From: Escherichia coli
GTDB lineage: Bacteria; Pseudomonadota; Gammaproteobacteria; Enterobacterales; Enterobacteriaceae
Length of the DNA: 64,000 bases
NCBI RefSeq assembly: GCF_044324875.1
Contig: NZ_CP172185.1
Reading direction: 5' to 3' (one strand)
Positions 19,045-56,580 of the stretch are shown here, in pieces (the stretch's first letter is position 1; each line of letters starts with the position of its first letter). The position numbers were made by a program, and so were the translations under genes. The notes under the pieces are model-generated. The model saw only the letters and a program-made list of their open reading frames with translations, was not told the origin of the DNA and did not search any database.

Positions 19045-20025
19045 CTAACGTCCTGCTTTTAACAATAACCAGATAAACACCGGCGCACCCAACGTTGCGG
19101 TGACCACGCCAATAGGCAGCTCTGCGGCAGCTAATGCCAGGCGCGCTACAACATCGGCCAGCAGCAATGCGCTCGCCCCTGCCAGCGCGCAGCCGGGAAG
19201 TAATACGCGATGATCGGTCAAACCACATAACCGGAGAATATGTGGGATCACCAGACCAATAAAGCCGATAGCACCCGCCAACGCCACACTGACGCCAACC
19301 ATCCAGCCGGTCGCTGCCACCAGCACATTGCGCCAGAACCACAGGGGTAAACCCAGTTGCCGCGCCGAGATCTCGCCAAGTGCTAACATATTCATCGGCC
19401 TGGACTGACAACAGATCCACAACAACACGGGGATCAATGCCAGCATCAGCCAGCTTTGCCGCCAGTCTACGCCGCCAAAACCGCCCATCATCCAGTACAT
19501 CAGCTGACGTAAATCAACAGAGGTGGAAAAGTAGATAGCCCACGTCATTAGTGCGCTACAGATAATCCCTAATGCAACGCCAGCCAGCAATAACCGACTG
19601 GTCGAAAGATGACGACGGGCGAAACGTAAGAGTATTAAAGTGATGATAAGCGCGCCAGCAATCGCACACAGCCCCAGCGCCCAGTTGGGGAGTTGCCCTT
19701 GCCCAAGCAATACAGCGGCGATAAGCCCCACGCCTGCGCCATTAGAGACGCCAAGTAGTCCAGGTTCTGCCAGAGGATTTTCAAATAACGCCTGCATTAC
19801 AGCGCCGGATATAGCCAACGCCGCACCAACCAGCAATACAGCCAGCGTACGTGGCAGGCGAATCTGCCAGACGAACAGTTCGCCTCGAGGAGAAAACCAG
19901 TCACCTGGCGAGATCCATTGTTCACCGGCGCAAAGGCTTAAGAGAAGCGCCAGCAGCATCAAAACTGACAGGCATAATAACCAGCGAATATTTTGTCGCT
20001 GTTGTTGGCGGGCAAGTGTCAGCAT
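19045..20025 (-). CDS. btuC: vitamin B12 ABC transporter permease
   Basis: 326-aa highly hydrophobic ORF; FecCD-type permease; synteny. Confidence 0.95.
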
Positions 20026-20086
20026 GGTATCCGTTCTGCTGAAGTGTCATGGCGTTGATTTTACGGTGACTCTTCGACAGTGAAAA

Positions 20087-20108
20087 GAAAAAAGGCCGCA
20101 GAGCGGCC
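20087..20108. repeat. attL core, direct repeat gaaaaaaggccgcagagcggcc
   Basis: Identical 22-mer at 57761-57782; seen in sequence. Confidence 0.7.
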
Positions 20109-20200
20109 ATAATTGCAATCAAAAATCAATAATTTAAATACTTATCAATCACTTAAGAACACATTAAAATACAAGCAACCACGCAAAACGACGTGAATGT

Positions 20201-20218
20201 GGTCACTTTGTGGATCAT
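20201..20218. repeat. 18-bp repeat ggtcactttgtggatcat inside prophage left arm (possible integrase arm-type site)
   Basis: 17/18 match to 57705-57722 in same orientation; functional role is inference. Confidence 0.3.
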
Positions 20219-20631
20219 TCGTCCCCTTCTTTCTCTTTGTTCTGTTGAACGCTAATTGCGACACACGTAGCAATCAAATCTTTACATTTCTCCATATCTT
20301 CTGTCTTGCGCAACTTGATGCTTGCCACCGATTGTGGATTATCCGCTGTGGCACAATGCATTGTTATTTCAATGTCGTTTCGATGAAAGAGTCCCATAAT
20401 AGCTTTTGCAACCTCCGTCCCTTTTTCCGCGATATCAAAGATCAAAGCAAGTTTATACAAAATATCACCAGAAAAACACTCAACCCTGCTAAGACCAACA
20501 TCACATAATGAAAAATATTGCTCAACGTCCCCCTGGAGTTCGGGAGCACACACAATATCTATTTTTCCGTACTGGCCTGAATAAAAGTCACTATTAACTG
20601 TTTTTTTCACAACATCCTCCTTCTTCAGCAA
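20215..20631 (-). CDS. hypothetical acidic protein at prophage left end (C-terminal region paralogous to ORF 56096-56311)
   Basis: 138-aa ORF overlapping 3' end of int; FHRNDIEITMHC...IKLRKTEDMEKCKDLI resembles FRRNDIEIELHF...VKLRHARDVQACQCLI. Confidence 0.55.
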   Translation of the reverse strand: MLKKEDVVKKTVNSDFYSGQYGKIDIVCAPELQGDVEQYFSLCDVGLSRVECFSGDILYKLALIFDIAEKGTEVAKAIMGLFHRNDIEITMHCATADNPQSVASIKLRKTEDMEKCKDLIATCVAISVQQNKEKEGDE

Positions 20632-21595
20632 TTGGATTAAACCTCACCGCATCCTGCAAATAATCCGGTGCAAGATGGGCATAAATCATCGTTGTCTGAA
20701 TCTTTGCGTGCCCCAGAATTTTCTGGAGCGTCAGAATATTGCCGCCGTTCATCATGAAATGACTGGCGAAAGTGTGGCGCAGCGCGTGAACGGCCTGCCC
20801 GTCAGGAATGGAAGGGGCAACCGCTTTTATCGAATCGCGCACCAGTGAATAATCCAGCGCCGGAAATACCAGCTTTCCGCCCCGTTTTTTAATTTTGTCA
20901 AACAGGCTTTCAGAAATTGGAACAGTCCGGTTTTTACTGTTTTTGGTTCTGGAAAATGTGATCCGGGAATGCAGAACGCGGCGCTGTTCAAGTGCCACCA
21001 CCTCACCCCATCGCGCCCCGGTAGATAAAAGAATTTCAGTAGCTAGCCGTTCGTCGGGATGCTCTACCAGAACGTCAAGCAGCTGGAGGCACTCCTGCCT
21101 GTTCAGATACCCCATTTCGCGCTCGCTGACCTTCATCCCTTTCAGTCCGCTAACAGGGTTATCATTCTGGAAGTGACCGGATGAGATGAGTGCGGAAAAC
21201 ATCGCGCTAAGCGCACCAACCTCGCGGTTTATGGTACTTGGCTGAATCCCCTCCTCCGCTCTTGCCACGCGTAATTCCGTTAACGTGGTGGCGTTGACGT
21301 TGTTAACACGCGGATCCCCCATCGCTTCACACACGCGCTGTAATTTGAGGCGTGTGTTCCACCCCGATTTCATCAGTTGCCCGTGAAACTTCCACCATAA
21401 TTCGATAAGTTCGGACAACGAACGGCGATCGGTCGGCGCACTGTTCCATGCGTTATTTTGGTGTTGAGCTAAAACCCAGCGTTCGAACTGGATAGCCTCC
21501 GACTTTGTTTTGAACTTTTTACGAATGCGTTTACCTTTGCGCCCATCAGGACGCATATCAACCATGTAGCCACCAGGGATTGATTTTATGCTCAT
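20594..21595 (-). CDS. int: tyrosine-type site-specific integrase (P2 Int-like)
   Basis: Translation MSIKSIPGGYMVDMRPDGRKGKR...; C-terminal ...HALRHTFASHFMMNGGNILTLQKILGH...YAHL catalytic region; start chosen at ATG 21595 inside longer ORF. Confidence 0.9.
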   Translation of the reverse strand: MSIKSIPGGYMVDMRPDGRKGKRIRKKFKTKSEAIQFERWVLAQHQNNAWNSAPTDRRSLSELIELWWKFHGQLMKSGWNTRLKLQRVCEAMGDPRVNNVNATTLTELRVARAEEGIQPSTINREVGALSAMFSALISSGHFQNDNPVSGLKGMKVSEREMGYLNRQECLQLLDVLVEHPDERLATEILLSTGARWGEVVALEQRRVLHSRITFSRTKNSKNRTVPISESLFDKIKKRGGKLVFPALDYSLVRDSIKAVAPSIPDGQAVHALRHTFASHFMMNGGNILTLQKILGHAKIQTTMIYAHLAPDYLQDAVRFNPIAEEGGCCEKNS

Positions 21596-21644
21596 TGGCA
21601 TACCCCCAGCGTCACAAGCCCACCGTGCCCCCAGCGTTCCATAA

Positions 21645-21953
21645 TCAGCCGTGCAGTGTGCCAGTCTTGCGGACTTTTTGAGAAGGTGATGTGCTTTCTG
21701 GCCCATCAGGGGAGAGAGTCGGGCTGATCTGCCCAGCAGCCTCGTTTGTTTTTCCCGTCATGAGCCAATTCATGTACTTAAAAAAACGAGGATGATTAAC
21801 AATCTTGACGAGAGCTTCGCCGCCGACATTCTCAATCCGACCTGTCTCATAACGGCGTAGAGTACCGATAGGTACATCAATCAGTTCACAAAACTCTTCA
21901 CGCGTTAACCCTTCCGACTCACGAATTACTCTGATTTTTTCACCAATAAACAT
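21645..21953 (-). CDS. immunity repressor (P2 C-like HTH protein)
   Basis: 102-aa HTH protein upstream of int and divergent from early operon; recalled resemblance to P2 C. Confidence 0.7.
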   Translation of the reverse strand: MFIGEKIRVIRESEGLTREEFCELIDVPIGTLRRYETGRIENVGGEALVKIVNHPRFFKYMNWLMTGKTNEAAGQISPTLSPDGPESTSPSQKVRKTGTLHG

Positions 21954-21992
21954 TGACAGTGTTCCTATCAGTACAGTATTCTTGATTTCAAG

Positions 21993-22010
21993 GTGTACTT
22001 ATAAGTACAC
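21993..22010. promoter_or_regulatory. perfect 18-bp palindrome GTGTACTTATAAGTACAC in the repressor/early divergent intergenic region (putative operator)
   Basis: Seen in sequence; flanked by a second inverted repeat gtattcttg...caagaatac. Confidence 0.5.
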
Positions 22011-22050
22011 AAGAATACAAATAGCCACAGACTGGAAAGGTTACCACATC

Positions 22051-22329
22051 ATGACAAAAGTCTTGAACACATACGGGGAGACGGACTTCAACAAGCTGGC
22101 GGCAATGTACCCCTACCGTGATGAGCATGGACTGCCAGTTCTTGAGGAAAGCCTTGAGGACTACGCCAAACGAACCAATCAAGCCCTGAACACTGTTAAA
22201 AAACAGGTCGACAGAGCGCAGATCCCTATAAATCAGCATAAAAAAGGCGGGAAACGCACAGTAAATCTCTACGCAATTTTTCTGAAAACCATCATAAACG
22301 CAGAGAAATATGTACTCATGACGAAATAA
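22051..22329 (+). CDS. first early gene, Cox/Apl-position small protein (function uncertain)
   Basis: 92-aa ORF from ATG 22051 divergent from repressor; positional analogy only, no recognised similarity to P2 Cox. Confidence 0.4.
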   Translation: MTKVLNTYGETDFNKLAAMYPYRDEHGLPVLEESLEDYAKRTNQALNTVKKQVDRAQIPINQHKKGGKRTVNLYAIFLKTIINAEKYVLMTK

Positions 22330-23847: not shown

Positions 23848-24333
23848 TTAGCGGGAAGCGCCAACCGTAAGGCTGGCAATGATTTTTTCGGAGAGTGAGA
23901 GAGATTCGCGATGATTAAGACCAAGAGCAGCACAAGCTTTATTGCGCGCCGGGTTGTCCATGCATTCAAGCACCGGAGAGTCCTGCTTCTCAATTTCCAC
24001 CAGTCGCGCCAGCAACACCTCCGTGCTGAGACCGTCGCTTTCAGTAATCAGGACGTTATAGCGATGAGCCTGTTCTTTTGCAGCCTGAGCGCGTCGCCCA
24101 AATTTCCAGGCGATATTGCAGCCACTAAGCACAGCCACGATACCACCCAGCAACCAACTGAAATTGCTGTCTGCAAACACAGTAGCCCCAGACGTAAGGA
24201 TGACAGCATTAATCACCGTATCCATACGGCGGTTAAACACCTCCGAAATATGTTCAAGCCAGTAACTGTTCCAGAGACGAAACATGACCTCGTGTCGCCG
24301 TTCGGCATGATTTTCAGTTGGTTGTCTGTTCAT
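23848..24333 (-). CDS. hypothetical membrane protein with a two-helix hydrophobic hairpin, opposite strand to early operon
   Basis: 161-aa ORF; hydrophobic stretch INAVILTSGATVFADSNFSWLLGGIVAVLSGCNIAW. Confidence 0.5.
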   Translation of the reverse strand: MNRQPTENHAERRHEVMFRLWNSYWLEHISEVFNRRMDTVINAVILTSGATVFADSNFSWLLGGIVAVLSGCNIAWKFGRRAQAAKEQAHRYNVLITESDGLSTEVLLARLVEIEKQDSPVLECMDNPARNKACAALGLNHRESLSLSEKIIASLTVGASR

Positions 24334-45852: not shown

Positions 45853-48800
45853 CTAATCTCTGTCACGGAAACTACCGACTGTCTGGCGGATACGGCGTTC
45901 CATTTCCGCACGGACGGCATCACCCACCATTTTTGCCAGTTCGCGCGGGTTTTGCGTGTGAACATCATGCAGGTGAATATGCAGTTCGCCAGTTAATCCC
46001 CATGGTGCCGGATCACTCTGACGCGGTCGGGGCGATGCGGGGGATATGGGCTGGCGCACAGCCTCAACCACCGGACGGGATGTTGCCGTTACGACGGGTG
46101 TCATTACCGGCGCAATATTGCCGGACACTACCGGTTTAATTACCGGGGAGAGCGTCGGTATAACATCGCCAGCCATAACCGGTTTGATCGCTGGCGAAAT
46201 AACCGGAGCAACAGACTCAGCCATGACGGAACTGACAGGCTGAGGCGCTCTCACTATGCCAGCATCGATAACCAGCATGAGCTCGCGTACTGCCTCAAGG
46301 ACAGGACGGGATATTGCCGCCATCACTGGTGTCATTAGCGGGGAGAACGTCGGCATGACATCGTGAGTCATAACCGGTTTGATCACCGGCGAAACCACCG
46401 GCGTAATATTACCGGACAGTACCGGACGGACGACCGGAGGAATAACCGGCACATTATTCACGGACACCACCGGCTTCACGACCGGCGACACGTTCGCCGT
46501 GGTGGATATCAGCGGCGAAACACTGACAGGCGGTGGCGCTGGCAGCGGTGGCAACGAAGGCACACTGACCGACGGCACCTGCGGCAGTCTGACAGGTGGC
46601 TCACTGACACTACCCGGTAACAGGGAAGCTGCGCGGTTAAAGCGTTCCTCCTTCCACTCACCACGAACGGCCAGCGCTTCCGGCAGGTTTTTAAAGATAA
46701 TATCGCCGGGACCAGTGCGTTTTTTCGCCTGTTTCGCCTCATCCAGCAGGCCACCGGTGTTATCGACGATTTTATTCAGGCGACGCATGGTGCCGGTATT
46801 CTCCCCCGTCAGCGGAGCAGTTGCTGCAGGTGCAGGTACTGGCGGCTTTTTGTCTTTGTCATTTTGCGGCGGATTAATGACATTAACATCCGCCAGGAGC
46901 ATGGCGGCTTTCTCGTTCAGCAGCTCCTTCTGCTTCAGCTCTTCCGCCTTTTTCCGGGCGCGCTCAACCGCCGACGGAATCAGCCCGAGTTTTTCCAGCA
47001 CCCGGGTTAATGAGTCAATCAGCAGCGTAACCGGACCGGTCACCAGATTGCTGATAAACTCCCCGACCTTCTGCCCGAACGTCCGCCCGGCTTCCGTGCA
47101 CTTGTCCAGCTCATCCTTTGTTGTGCTTACCGGCGCGAACAAATCCACGAACCACTGCCACACACGCCCGATTGTCTGCCCGACATACTCAAACAATGGT
47201 CCCAGTGGTGCCACAGCCTCGCGCAGTGGCGTAAGCCCCTGCCACAGGCCGGACAAGAACCCGCCCACGACAGCCTTCAGCTGGTCCCAGTGCCGCCAGA
47301 TAAGCACTGCCGCACCGACCAGTGTCGCCACCACAAGGCCCACCGGACTTAACAGAAAACCCAGCGCCCCGCCAAGTGCGCCCACCGCACCACTCACCAT
47401 CCCCCACAGTGCGGGCAGACCTGACAGTCTGAGCGCCAGTATTCCGATACCGCGCCCCAGTGAAATCAGTGCGCCGCCAGGTGAAGTGAACGCAGCCAGC
47501 AGACCACCACGCAGCGCGCCAAGTCCCGCCTGCACACCACGAAGCCGCCCCGCAACTACGCCCAGCAGTGCAGCAAACCGTCCGGCACCGGAGGTGATAC
47601 CGACAAACAGCACGCGCCAGCCACCGATACCGCCCAGCGGACCACCGAGTACGCCGCGCAGCTGCGTCAGTAACGGCAGCGCACGACCGAGGCCGGATGT
47701 GCCGGTCAGCAGGGCAAACCCAAGACGCAGTTTTGCCAGCGGCCCCATCAACACACCAGTGGCAAGTGACAGCGCCCCCATGGCCGCAACCGCAGCCAGC
47801 AGTGCACCACCGGCAATCAGCAGTTGTTTTGTCAGTTCAGGGTGCGCCTGGGCCAGCGCGGTGACTTTCGCAATAACCCGGGTGAACGACTGCGTGACAG
47901 AACGCAGCGGCCCGTCAACGAGGTCAGCGACACGGATACGCAGCCCTTCCCATGCGCTGTTCAGTGATTTCAGGTCGCCGTCCAGGTTGTCCGCCATGAT
48001 TCTGGCGTTTTCTTCCAGTTCGCCGTTCGCTGCCTGAATCTCACGCGTCAGGCGCGGCAGGTTTTTTTCGCCTGCCTGTTCAACCAGGCTCATCAGGGAG
48101 ACATACGCCTCCTGCCCGGCAATATCTGAAAAGAACGAGACTTTTGCCGCGTTACCGTATTTACGGGTGGCCTGATACAGCTCATACAGGATATCTTCCA
48201 TCGGGCGCATGTTCCCGTAAGCATCCTGCGTTTCCACGCCCAGCTGTTTCAGCGCCTTTGCTGCCGCTTTAGGCGGGTTCACAAGGCGGGACAGACTGGA
48301 GCGCAGCGCCGTACCAGCATCACTGCCACGTATCCCCATCGACCCAAGCAACCCGGTCATGGCTGCGGTCTGTTCAAGAGACAGACCGAGTGAGGCGGCG
48401 ACCGGTCCCGTATATTTCATCGTCTCACCAAGCCCGCGCAGGTCGGTATTGGTGCGGGTGAACGTTGCGGCCAGCGTGTCACCCACGCGGTTCATCTGGT
48501 CGGCAGACAACCCGAACTGCGTAAGGATATTTGAGCTGATATCGGCCGTCTGACCGAGGTCCATGCCGCTGGCCGTTGCCAGATTCAGCACGCCGGGAAG
48601 AGCCGCCTGTATCGCCTGCGGCGTGAACCCCGCCATGGCAAGGAACGCCTGACCGCTGGCAGCATCACCTGCGGTAAACTGCGTTTCGGAGCCGAGTTTA
48701 AGCGCCTGTTCGCGCAGCGCCTTAAACTGCGGACTGTTTTTGTCAATACGGGTCAGCGCCTGGACGCGCGACATCTCCTTACCAAAACTGACCGCCGGTT

Positions 48801-49395
48801 GCAGGAAACGCCCGGCCGCATAGCCACCTGCCGCTGCCGTGCCGACTGCCGTAAATCCACCCGCTTTCAGTTTTCCCGCCATCTCCTGAGCGCGGAAATA
48901 TTGCTGGCGTGCCTGCGTGACGCGTGCCAGAGTCTGCCGTTCACGTTCCAGCTGTTCGTTGTATTGCTGTGTTCGCCGTATGGCCTGTTGAATGGTGTTG
49001 TCACTGCCGGAAAGCGCAATACCGTGACGCCGCAGCTCACCACCCAGTTCGCGCATTCGCTGAACTTCACGCGCACGGACCTCATTGAGACGCTCAAGTT
49101 TGAGGCTCAAATCGTTCATCAGCTTTTTCTGTTTGTCAGACAGCACGGTTCCGGCGCGCTGAATTTGCTGAAGTGCGCTTAACTGGCGTTGTGCCCGGGC
49201 AATGCCGTTTCCGGCCTTGTTTGCAGCCTCGCGGGCGCGATCAAATGAACGGGCGTGGCGTTCCAGGTTTTTGATCGCACCCTGCGTTCTCTGTATGGAG
49301 TCGCCAAGCTGGCCCATCATGCGACGGGCGTTTTCGGTGGGACGGGTCAGCCTGTCAACAGCGCTGAAGGCGACCCGTATATCAAGCGTTTTCAT
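45853..49395 (-). CDS. tail tape measure protein (gpT-like), start taken at MKTLDIR
   Basis: Very long Ala/Gly-rich ORF with Pro/Val-rich repeats near C-terminus; ORF track start at 49431 is a GTG. Confidence 0.85.
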   Translation of the reverse strand: MKTLDIRVAFSAVDRLTRPTENARRMMGQLGDSIQRTQGAIKNLERHARSFDRAREAANKAGNGIARAQRQLSALQQIQRAGTVLSDKQKKLMNDLSLKLERLNEVRAREVQRMRELGGELRRHGIALSGSDNTIQQAIRRTQQYNEQLERERQTLARVTQARQQYFRAQEMAGKLKAGGFTAVGTAAAGGYAAGRFLQPAVSFGKEMSRVQALTRIDKNSPQFKALREQALKLGSETQFTAGDAASGQAFLAMAGFTPQAIQAALPGVLNLATASGMDLGQTADISSNILTQFGLSADQMNRVGDTLAATFTRTNTDLRGLGETMKYTGPVAASLGLSLEQTAAMTGLLGSMGIRGSDAGTALRSSLSRLVNPPKAAAKALKQLGVETQDAYGNMRPMEDILYELYQATRKYGNAAKVSFFSDIAGQEAYVSLMSLVEQAGEKNLPRLTREIQAANGELEENARIMADNLDGDLKSLNSAWEGLRIRVADLVDGPLRSVTQSFTRVIAKVTALAQAHPELTKQLLIAGGALLAAVAAMGALSLATGVLMGPLAKLRLGFALLTGTSGLGRALPLLTQLRGVLGGPLGGIGGWRVLFVGITSGAGRFAALLGVVAGRLRGVQAGLGALRGGLLAAFTSPGGALISLGRGIGILALRLSGLPALWGMVSGAVGALGGALGFLLSPVGLVVATLVGAAVLIWRHWDQLKAVVGGFLSGLWQGLTPLREAVAPLGPLFEYVGQTIGRVWQWFVDLFAPVSTTKDELDKCTEAGRTFGQKVGEFISNLVTGPVTLLIDSLTRVLEKLGLIPSAVERARKKAEELKQKELLNEKAAMLLADVNVINPPQNDKDKKPPVPAPAATAPLTGENTGTMRRLNKIVDNTGGLLDEAKQAKKRTGPGDIIFKNLPEALAVRGEWKEERFNRAASLLPGSVSEPPVRLPQVPSVSVPSLPPLPAPPPVSVSPLISTTANVSPVVKPVVSVNNVPVIPPVVRPVLSGNITPVVSPVIKPVMTHDVMPTFSPLMTPVMAAISRPVLEAVRELMLVIDAGIVRAPQPVSSVMAESVAPVISPAIKPVMAGDVIPTLSPVIKPVVSGNIAPVMTPVVTATSRPVVEAVRQPISPASPRPRQSDPAPWGLTGELHIHLHDVHTQNPRELAKMVGDAVRAEMERRIRQTVGSFRDRD

Positions 49396-49908
49396 GCTCT
49401 GCGTTCCCGCTGCGAAGGGCCGCCCGCTCACGCCAGGCGACCACCTCGCCGGGATCCATCAGGAAGATTTCAGCGGGAGACCAGTTGAAAATAACGGCGA
49501 TATCCGCCACAAAGTCTTCAATATGCTCAAAGGGCACGACGGTTATCAGCCTGCCGTCGCCGCCACGCTCTTCCCGCCAGAGTCCTGACCGGCCAAAAAA
49601 TTAACCGCCACCCCGCACAGCTGAATAAAATCAGCGGACCCCATGCGCTTAAGCAGAACCTCGTCCAGTCGCGGCGAAGTGACGCGCGGGAGTAACTCAA
49701 ACATCGCGTCCGTTTTCATGTTCAGCACGTCAAGCAGTGACAGCCCGCGCAGTGAACCGGCCTGCTGTACAGCAGGCGTGATTTCCACATACGTGATTTT
49801 TTTGTTACCGAGCACAAGGGGCGTTTTCAGCGTCACGCCGCGCTCACTGGTCACGTCCGCCGCATCAGCACCGTCAGTAACAGGGGCAACAACCGGATTT
49901 TCTTTCAT
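49382..49908 (-). CDS. tail assembly chaperone E' (E+E' product via programmed -1 frameshift)
   Basis: Slippery heptamer T TTT TTG (minus strand; plus-strand CAAAAAA at 49594-49600); -1 frame stays open to 49382, overlapping tape measure start. Confidence 0.5.
49546..49908 (-). CDS. tail assembly chaperone E
   Basis: 120-aa ORF between tube and tape measure genes; ends shortly after slippery TTTTTTG. Confidence 0.75.
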   Translation of the reverse strand: MKENPVVAPVTDGADAADVTSERGVTLKTPLVLGNKKITYVEITPAVQQAGSLRGLSLLDVLNMKTDAMFELLPRVTSPRLDEVLLKRMGSADFIQLCGVAVNFLAGQDSGGKSVAATAG

Positions 49909-56311: not shown

Positions 56312-56580
56312 ACGCCCCCCTGAATATATCAGAAATGCTAGTATCGAAAAATGAGAAAACAGTTAGACAGGAGAAACATATTAACACAAATCATTTATAC
56401 CTATAGATGAAATTATAATTTCATTCATGAATATGATAGATAACTATATTGTGAACAAAATGAAAAATGGCTAAATTAAAAATGGGCATGGAGGAATGCC
56501 TCGTAATCAGTAATACATGATCCATACTTCCTTGTTTTGCCCGCCGGAAAGCGGGCATTTTTTTGGCGGTTACCATCGCC

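Follow-up and report, generated by a model that had tools for sequence, protein, structure and literature searches.

The studied C repressors of P2-family phages act on direct repeats in the spacer between their own gene and the early operon. P2 C does recognise direct repeats, as the preliminary description of the present DNA had stated: two of 8 bp, 22 bp apart (PMC1904268, PMC2995052). P2 Hy dis C recognises two 8-bp repeats 26 bp apart and WPhi C two 10-bp repeats 34 bp apart (PMC1904268, PMC1904263). In P2 as in WPhi, the -10 box of the early promoter Pe lies between the two repeats (PMC1904268, PMC1904263). When the spacers of these two phages were read directly, TTGACA was found to abut the start of C, with one repeat upstream of the -10 box, inside the promoter spacer, and the other downstream of it. 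P2 C forms a symmetric dimer that can be superimposed on P22 c2, a repressor that binds palindromic operators, and in both the recognition helices are 26 A apart (PMC2995052). The C family is described as binding non-palindromic direct repeats; P2 C is cited as a rare symmetric dimer on such sites, and the authors call the mechanism puzzling (PMC2995052, PMC4752584). No mention of palindromic C operators was found in the literature searched, and Karlsson 2006 lay outside that search. The latter work reportedly defined the P2-like immunity classes I-X.

The locus described here is a 97-nt spacer at positions 21954-22050 of the window, by which we mean the whole 64-kb stretch of E. coli DNA analysed. 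It is the gap between the repressor start codon (ATG, minus strand, 21951-21953) and the ATG of the first early gene at 22051. The repressor gene (21645..21953, minus strand) encodes a helix-turn-helix protein of 102 aa, which its ORF, its Pfam domains HTH_31 and HTH_3, its assignment to PHROG 147 (transcriptional regulator, E = 4.5e-31) and its match to the solved P2 C (2XCJ/2L49, E = 3.8e-15, residues 3-98) mark as a C-type immunity repressor. It is 49.5% identical to P2-type C proteins and its best phage match is 54%. Since no record in a collection of 50,697 phage records was more than 54% identical, the repressor is not of the P2, WPhi or L-413C type. A nucleotide search of the same collection with the switch region gave only a 10% partial match, and no characterised phage in it shares the immunity region. 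In the protein collection the identical repressor is recorded on 582 contigs.

The first early gene (22051..22329, plus strand) encodes a Cox-like protein of 92 aa that matches phrog_11533 (E = 1.5e-47) and, weakly, phrog_575, 'Cox-like excisionase and repressor' (E = 2e-6). The identical gene is named 'DNA-binding protein' in RefSeq, and a BLASTP comparison of its product with WPhi Cox found no similarity. The Cox-type identity of this gene is therefore the weak point in assigning the locus to the P2-type switches. Downstream of C lies a tyrosine integrase with the Pfam domains Int_N and Phage_integrase. Its maximal ORF is 20594..21706 on the minus strand; the true start is probably further in, and RefSeq homologues are 310-330 aa long. 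btuC lies beyond the integrase, and the order integrase-C / Cox-like gene is that of P2. The structural genes of the prophage are about 78% identical to those of P88-like Peduoviridae. On repressor homology and gene order, the spacer is thus assigned as the C/Cox-type lysis/lysogeny switch of a P2-family (Peduoviridae) prophage next to btuC, which agrees with its initial reading as an immunity switch region.

Ten further loci (L101-L110) combine the identical module of C gene, 97-nt spacer and Cox-like gene with integrases that differ in length and start (310-329 aa), which indicates that immunity module and integrase assort independently. The attachment end also carries variable cargo. When window positions 19045-21706 were compared with E. 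coli F374, whose switch region is 99.9% identical, the interval from btuC to the repressor was about 724 bp longer in F374 and held two hypothetical genes adjoining the integrase; there the window carries a 138-aa ORF (20215-20631) instead. On the other side of the switch, a 161-aa ORF (23848-24333, minus strand) runs against the direction of the early operon. Its RefSeq homologue is hypothetical, and it may be an inserted accessory gene.

The perfect 18-bp palindrome that had been noticed between repressor and early gene is present. It lies at 21993-22010, reads GTGTACTTATAAGTACAC, pairs at all nine symmetric positions and is here named O2. In shuffles of the 97-nt spacer, a perfect palindrome of 18 bp arose by chance with P = 5e-4. 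The whole window contains three such palindromes, against 0.2 expected. The second, GCCTGCTGTACAGCAGGC (49760-49777), is GC-rich and lies in the tail-gene region, where it adjoins a 1192-aa ORF (45853-49431) that is likely to encode the tape-measure protein, judged from size and position alone. On the minus strand a run of seven A lies 19 nt upstream of this palindrome, which may form a hairpin that stimulates frameshifting in the tail chaperone pair; the spacing is long for that. The third, ATGAAATTATAATTTCAT (56407-56424), lies in an AT-rich stretch (about 56340-56500) that has no ORF of 90 aa or more.

A promoter scan of the region gave one sigma-70-like promoter, with the -35 hexamer TTGACA (21953..21958, plus strand), an 18-nt spacer and the -10 hexamer TATTCT (21977..21982, plus strand), which together match at 10 of 12 positions. 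We take it as Pe. Its -35 hexamer overlaps the start codon of C on the other strand, and transcription is predicted to start near 21989, so that O2 would occupy about +4 to +21. The Pe spacer is filled exactly by a degenerate copy of the palindrome, O1 (GTGTTCCTATCAGTACAG, 21959..21976), which had been overlooked in the preliminary description. O1 starts 34 bp upstream of the start of O2 and is 14/18 identical to it (14 matches within 17 nt when aligned as direct repeat D2), and five of its nine symmetric pairs match. The operator had been taken to be a single palindrome; at the sequence level, the spacer instead contains two directly repeated 18-bp units 34 bp apart, one on each side of the Pe -10 box.

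Read on the minus strand, the left half of O1 is AGGAACAC (21959-21966), which contains AGGA 9 nt before the ATG of C. This AGGA is likely to be the ribosome-binding site of C, in which case O1 would double as a translation signal. The asymmetry of O1 at positions 5 and 7 creates the AGGA, and both positions are kept as CC in all class members. At the other end of the spacer, the conserved block AAGGTTACCACATC (22037..22050) just 5' of the early-gene ATG is the probable ribosome-binding region of that gene, and possibly also part of the repressor promoter Pc. Consensus scanning gave no consistent candidate for Pc, here or across relatives; the same scan missed the mapped Pc of WPhi, which is annotated as abutting the cox start codon.

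Relatives with repressors 65-89% identical to this one were found in E. coli, Salmonella, Klebsiella, Yersinia, Edwardsiella and Providencia. Their recognition-helix region is almost unchanged, GT(L/M)RRYETGRI. A scan of species-representative genomes added 16 loci, all with repressors at most 59% identical, and no further members of this class. The preliminary description had proposed that absence of the palindrome from relatives would speak against it; the palindrome was present in every relative examined. In an alignment of the spacers of 13 loci from six genera, with repressors 65-100% identical, conservation is sharply bimodal, the two units and the promoter hexamers being kept while the remaining spacer diverges. 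The majority fraction is 0.99 in the -35 hexamer (five of six columns invariant), 0.94 in O1 (11 invariant columns) and 0.97 in O2 (12 of 18 columns invariant), and it falls to 0.58 between the -10 hexamer and O2 and to 0.45, with indels, between O2 and the ribosome-binding region. Positions 22037-22053 reach 0.85, with seven invariant columns. Within the -10 hexamer the variation is confined to positions 3-5, with T, A and T fixed at positions 1, 2 and 6, a pattern that reads as the signature of a working -10 element.

In the relatives O1 is GTGTTCCTATAAGTACAC, which is 16/18 identical to O2 and has seven of nine symmetric pairs, and the spacing between O1 and O2 is 32 to 34 bp. O2 retains seven to nine of the nine symmetric pairs in all class members. 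In a Yersinia locus it reads GTGTTCTTATAAGAACAC, with the partner positions 5 and 14 both changed and all nine pairs kept. This is the only compensating symmetric change among about seven variant O2 sequences, the others carrying single asymmetric changes, so the evidence that O2 has undergone compensating change appears modest.

Viral contigs were scanned for exact GTGTNCTTATAAGNACAC for covariation at positions 5 and 14, and no new variants were found: in switch context there were 38 cases of A/T and one of A/C. Outside switch context, eight of nine matches were perfect palindromes. One such sequence, (G)GGTGTACTTATAAGTACACC(C), is a palindrome of 18-22 bp in three unrelated IMG/VR phage contigs, where it encodes the peptide GVLISTP, within antirepressor-like ORFs in L112 and L127 and within a 66-aa ORF of unknown kind in L111. 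The three cases inspected were rejected as operators and are a coding coincidence.

The palindrome had also been described as flanked by a second, nested inverted repeat. Its arms (inverted repeat I2) are indeed complementary at nine of nine positions, GTATTCTTG at 21976..21984, which contains the Pe -10 hexamer, and CAAGAATAC at 22010..22018, where conservation of the spacer is lowest (majority fraction 0.45). With the palindrome held fixed and the flanks shuffled, the chance of such a repeat was about 0.006. The arms are not concentric with the palindrome: the left one ends 8 nt from it and the right one overlaps it by 1 nt, and the two centres differ (21997 for the outer repeat, 22001.5 for the palindrome). 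In the spacer alignment, no relative whose repressor is non-identical has the outer repeat, which was rejected as a conserved element on that ground. The spacer is identical in ten contexts with an identical repressor, which is uninformative on selection for the outer repeat. The repeat is specific to this lineage, and an operator role for it has no comparative support.

A wider survey covered C-family types from viral contigs and genomes and was extended by the scan of species-representative genomes. Among about 20 other types, at least 12 have, at the position of O2, an 18-mer with seven to nine of nine symmetric pairs, and in these types the best palindromes sit at +30 to +35 downstream of the -35 hexamer. 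By chance, about 0.008 would be expected there per type. Examples of palindromic units are TGGAGCTAATTAGCTCCA, GGTAGCAATTGCTACC, CATCCTCAATTGAGGATG, GGGTTCTCATAAGAACCC and the L-413C-type TGGAACCTATATAGGTTCCA. A palindrome at the O2 position was absent from P2, WPhi and E. coli TUM9803. Across the types, a change of recognition helix goes with a change of the repeated units, the units staying at the same positions.

At the same btuC site, between near-identical flanks, TUM9803 has a prophage with a swapped immunity cassette. The exchange takes in exactly C residues 1-67, the spacer and most of cox (about 21752-22290). The two prophages share the C-terminal 35 residues of C, and the spacer of TUM9803 carries different repeats, TGGTTCAYTCMAAT.

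The repressor is very probably heteroimmune to P2, as had been suspected. Immunity groups share at least 95% repressor identity (PMC3448106), compared with 49.5% here; the recognition helix is GTLRRYETG here and GTLSYYESG in P2, and the operator sequences are unrelated. Heteroimmunity had been suggested on the basis of the palindromy itself, and that step does not hold, since palindromic units occupy the same position in many C-family types.

Judged from these comparisons, it is probable that O1 and O2 constitute a bipartite C operator that shuts off Pe through one dimer per dyad unit and has an immunity specificity unlike that of P2. We infer a model in which the 102-aa C, a symmetric dimer like P2 C, would place one dimer on each 18-bp unit. 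O2 would be the strong site. O1 would be weaker, constrained as it is by the overlapping signals of the Pe spacer and the likely ribosome-binding site of C, and would be filled cooperatively. With both units occupied, RNA polymerase would be excluded from Pe, and its shut-off would maintain lysogeny and confer superinfection immunity with a specificity unlike that of P2 and WPhi. Pc is predicted to read leftward through both units, as in WPhi. Several observations are consistent with this model. The units overlap the places where the half-sites of P2 and WPhi C have been mapped, which supports their reading as a C operator, and the fact that they vary with the recognition helix supports C as the binding protein. 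The symmetry of the P2 C dimer and its P22 c2-like helix spacing make a dyad unit structurally natural. WPhi C can bind a single unit (PMC1904263, PMC1904268), which fits one dimer per unit, and it tolerates changes of spacing (PMC1904263), which fits the O1-O2 spacing of 32-34 bp in the relatives.

The same two units could be read in another way, by a C that recognises the right-hand 10-11 bp alone, as TATCAGTACA (21966-21975) and TATAAGTACA (22000-22009), 34 bp apart. One helix of each dimer would read the repeat and the other would touch the DNA non-specifically, leaving the left half of O2 unread. For P2 C this model is the accepted one (PMC2995052), and all three experimentally studied C proteins recognise non-palindromic direct repeats. 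The right-hand TATNAGTACA alone does form a WPhi-like direct repeat, with the 34-bp spacing, the repeat length of about 10 bp and the placement around the -10 box that are found in WPhi (PMC1904268), and the left half of O1 departs from symmetry, five of nine pairs being kept in the window. We nevertheless consider this reading unlikely. The left half of O2 is as well conserved as the right half across six genera, the double change in Yersinia restores the symmetry, and palindromes recur at this position in at least 12 of about 20 other types, where chance would give them at about 0.008 per type. The asymmetry of O1, for its part, plausibly comes from AGGA, the likely ribosome-binding site of C.

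Two further explanations do without a C dimer on dyad DNA. The palindrome could act in RNA, by forming a stem-loop at the 5' end of the Pe transcript or within the repressor mRNA leader and so affecting stability or translation. O2 lies just downstream of the predicted Pe start and could form a hairpin of 7 bp with a 4-nt loop, and symmetric changes fit RNA base pairing equally well. Against this, the fold of the whole leader is unexceptional (-10.7 kcal/mol, z = -1.4), the sequence itself, beyond its pairing, is nearly invariant wherever the recognition helix is conserved, O1 repeats the sequence inside the promoter spacer and so outside the Pe transcript, and the positions coincide with the mapped protein operators of P2 and WPhi. 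An RNA element is accordingly most improbable. Slightly less probable again is that the palindrome arose by chance or is the site of another binder, such as a host factor or the Cox-like early protein. Cox and Apl also bind this spacer in P2 and 186 (PMC3936717, PMC7498355), but their known sites consist of short direct repeats arrayed with a period of about one helical turn, unlike an 18-bp palindrome (PMC7498355), and a host factor would not explain units that differ with the recognition helix of C. Chance is excluded by the shuffling result for O2 together with its conservation. Moreover, the window holds no further copy of the 18-mer with up to three mismatches, and the 9-bp half-site with up to one mismatch occurs in it at the chance rate (seven found, 6.8 expected), so that distal operators are not indicated either.

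The bipartite dyad operator, if correct, bears on the puzzle posed by P2 C. A close family member and at least 12 other immunity types keep the layout of P2 and WPhi with true palindromes as the repeated unit. We tentatively suggest, with slightly less than even confidence, that the P2 C family usually, and probably ancestrally, recognises DNA through dyad-symmetric 18-bp units with one C dimer each, and that the non-palindromic repeats of P2, P2 Hy dis and WPhi are degenerate special cases. If C binds symmetrically, the family would offer matched natural pairs of palindromic and degenerate operators for dissecting the puzzle, and would show new immunity specificities arising by a cassette swap of repressor N-terminus, operator and Cox. 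With its perfect palindrome at O2, the present repressor would be a clean natural system in which to ask how asymmetric DNA is read by a symmetric P2 C dimer (PMC2995052, PMC4752584). The analysis also defines a putative promoter and operator for an uncharacterised immunity type.

The second kind of switch in P2-like phages is that of 186 CI, which recognises inverted repeats at an early promoter belonging to a face-to-face pair (PMC1904268). The CI protein is 196 aa long, with a separate oligomerisation domain, and its switch needs CII and uses distal operators, whereas the repressor here has 102 aa and is P2 C-like. The ORFs after the Cox-like gene (71 and 102 aa) gave no CII-like match. A switch of the 186 CI type was rejected on the size of the repressor, this result and the lack of distal copies of the 18-mer.

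Like 434 and P22 c2 repressors, which are symmetric helix-turn-helix dimers on dyad sites, the repressor here apparently meets its DNA as a symmetric dimer, and C.Esp1396I places one dimer on each of its directly repeated palindromes. The whole-protein families are not homologous, there is no LexA-like cleavage domain here, and in promoter arrangement and partner protein (Cox) the present switch follows P2.

P2 itself shares with this locus a homologous repressor and operators around the Pe -10 box. P2 has face-to-face promoters Pe and Pc serving C-int and cox operons, of which the gene order and Pe alone are confirmed here. Its operator consists of 8-bp direct repeats, GTTTAGAT, 22 bp apart and without a palindrome, and it belongs to a different immunity group (49.5% identity). 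In this respect P2, P2 Hy dis and WPhi are alike in having non-palindromic half-sites, unlike the present locus with nine of nine pairs in O2. WPhi is closer in layout: it too has a small P2-type C, TTGACA at the same position and two units 34 bp apart around the -10 box. Its units are 10-bp non-palindromic direct repeats, TATTGGTGAC, in place of 18-bp dyads; neither the repressors nor the unit sequences are related in specificity, and no similarity is detectable between the Cox proteins.

The layout found here is identical to that of the L-413C type (the 'P2' record from E. coli O157:H43 T22, R18C and FSLSP004), for whose operator no describing paper was found in the literature search. In that type TTGACA is followed by an 18-nt spacer with CCTATATAGG, by TAAATT and then by the 20-bp perfect palindrome TGGAACCTATATAGGTTCCA, with a repeat spacing of 34 bp. 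The L-413C-type repressor is 49.5% identical to the one described here; its recognition helix is STLKKYEGG, and the sequence of its units differs from that of O1 and O2.
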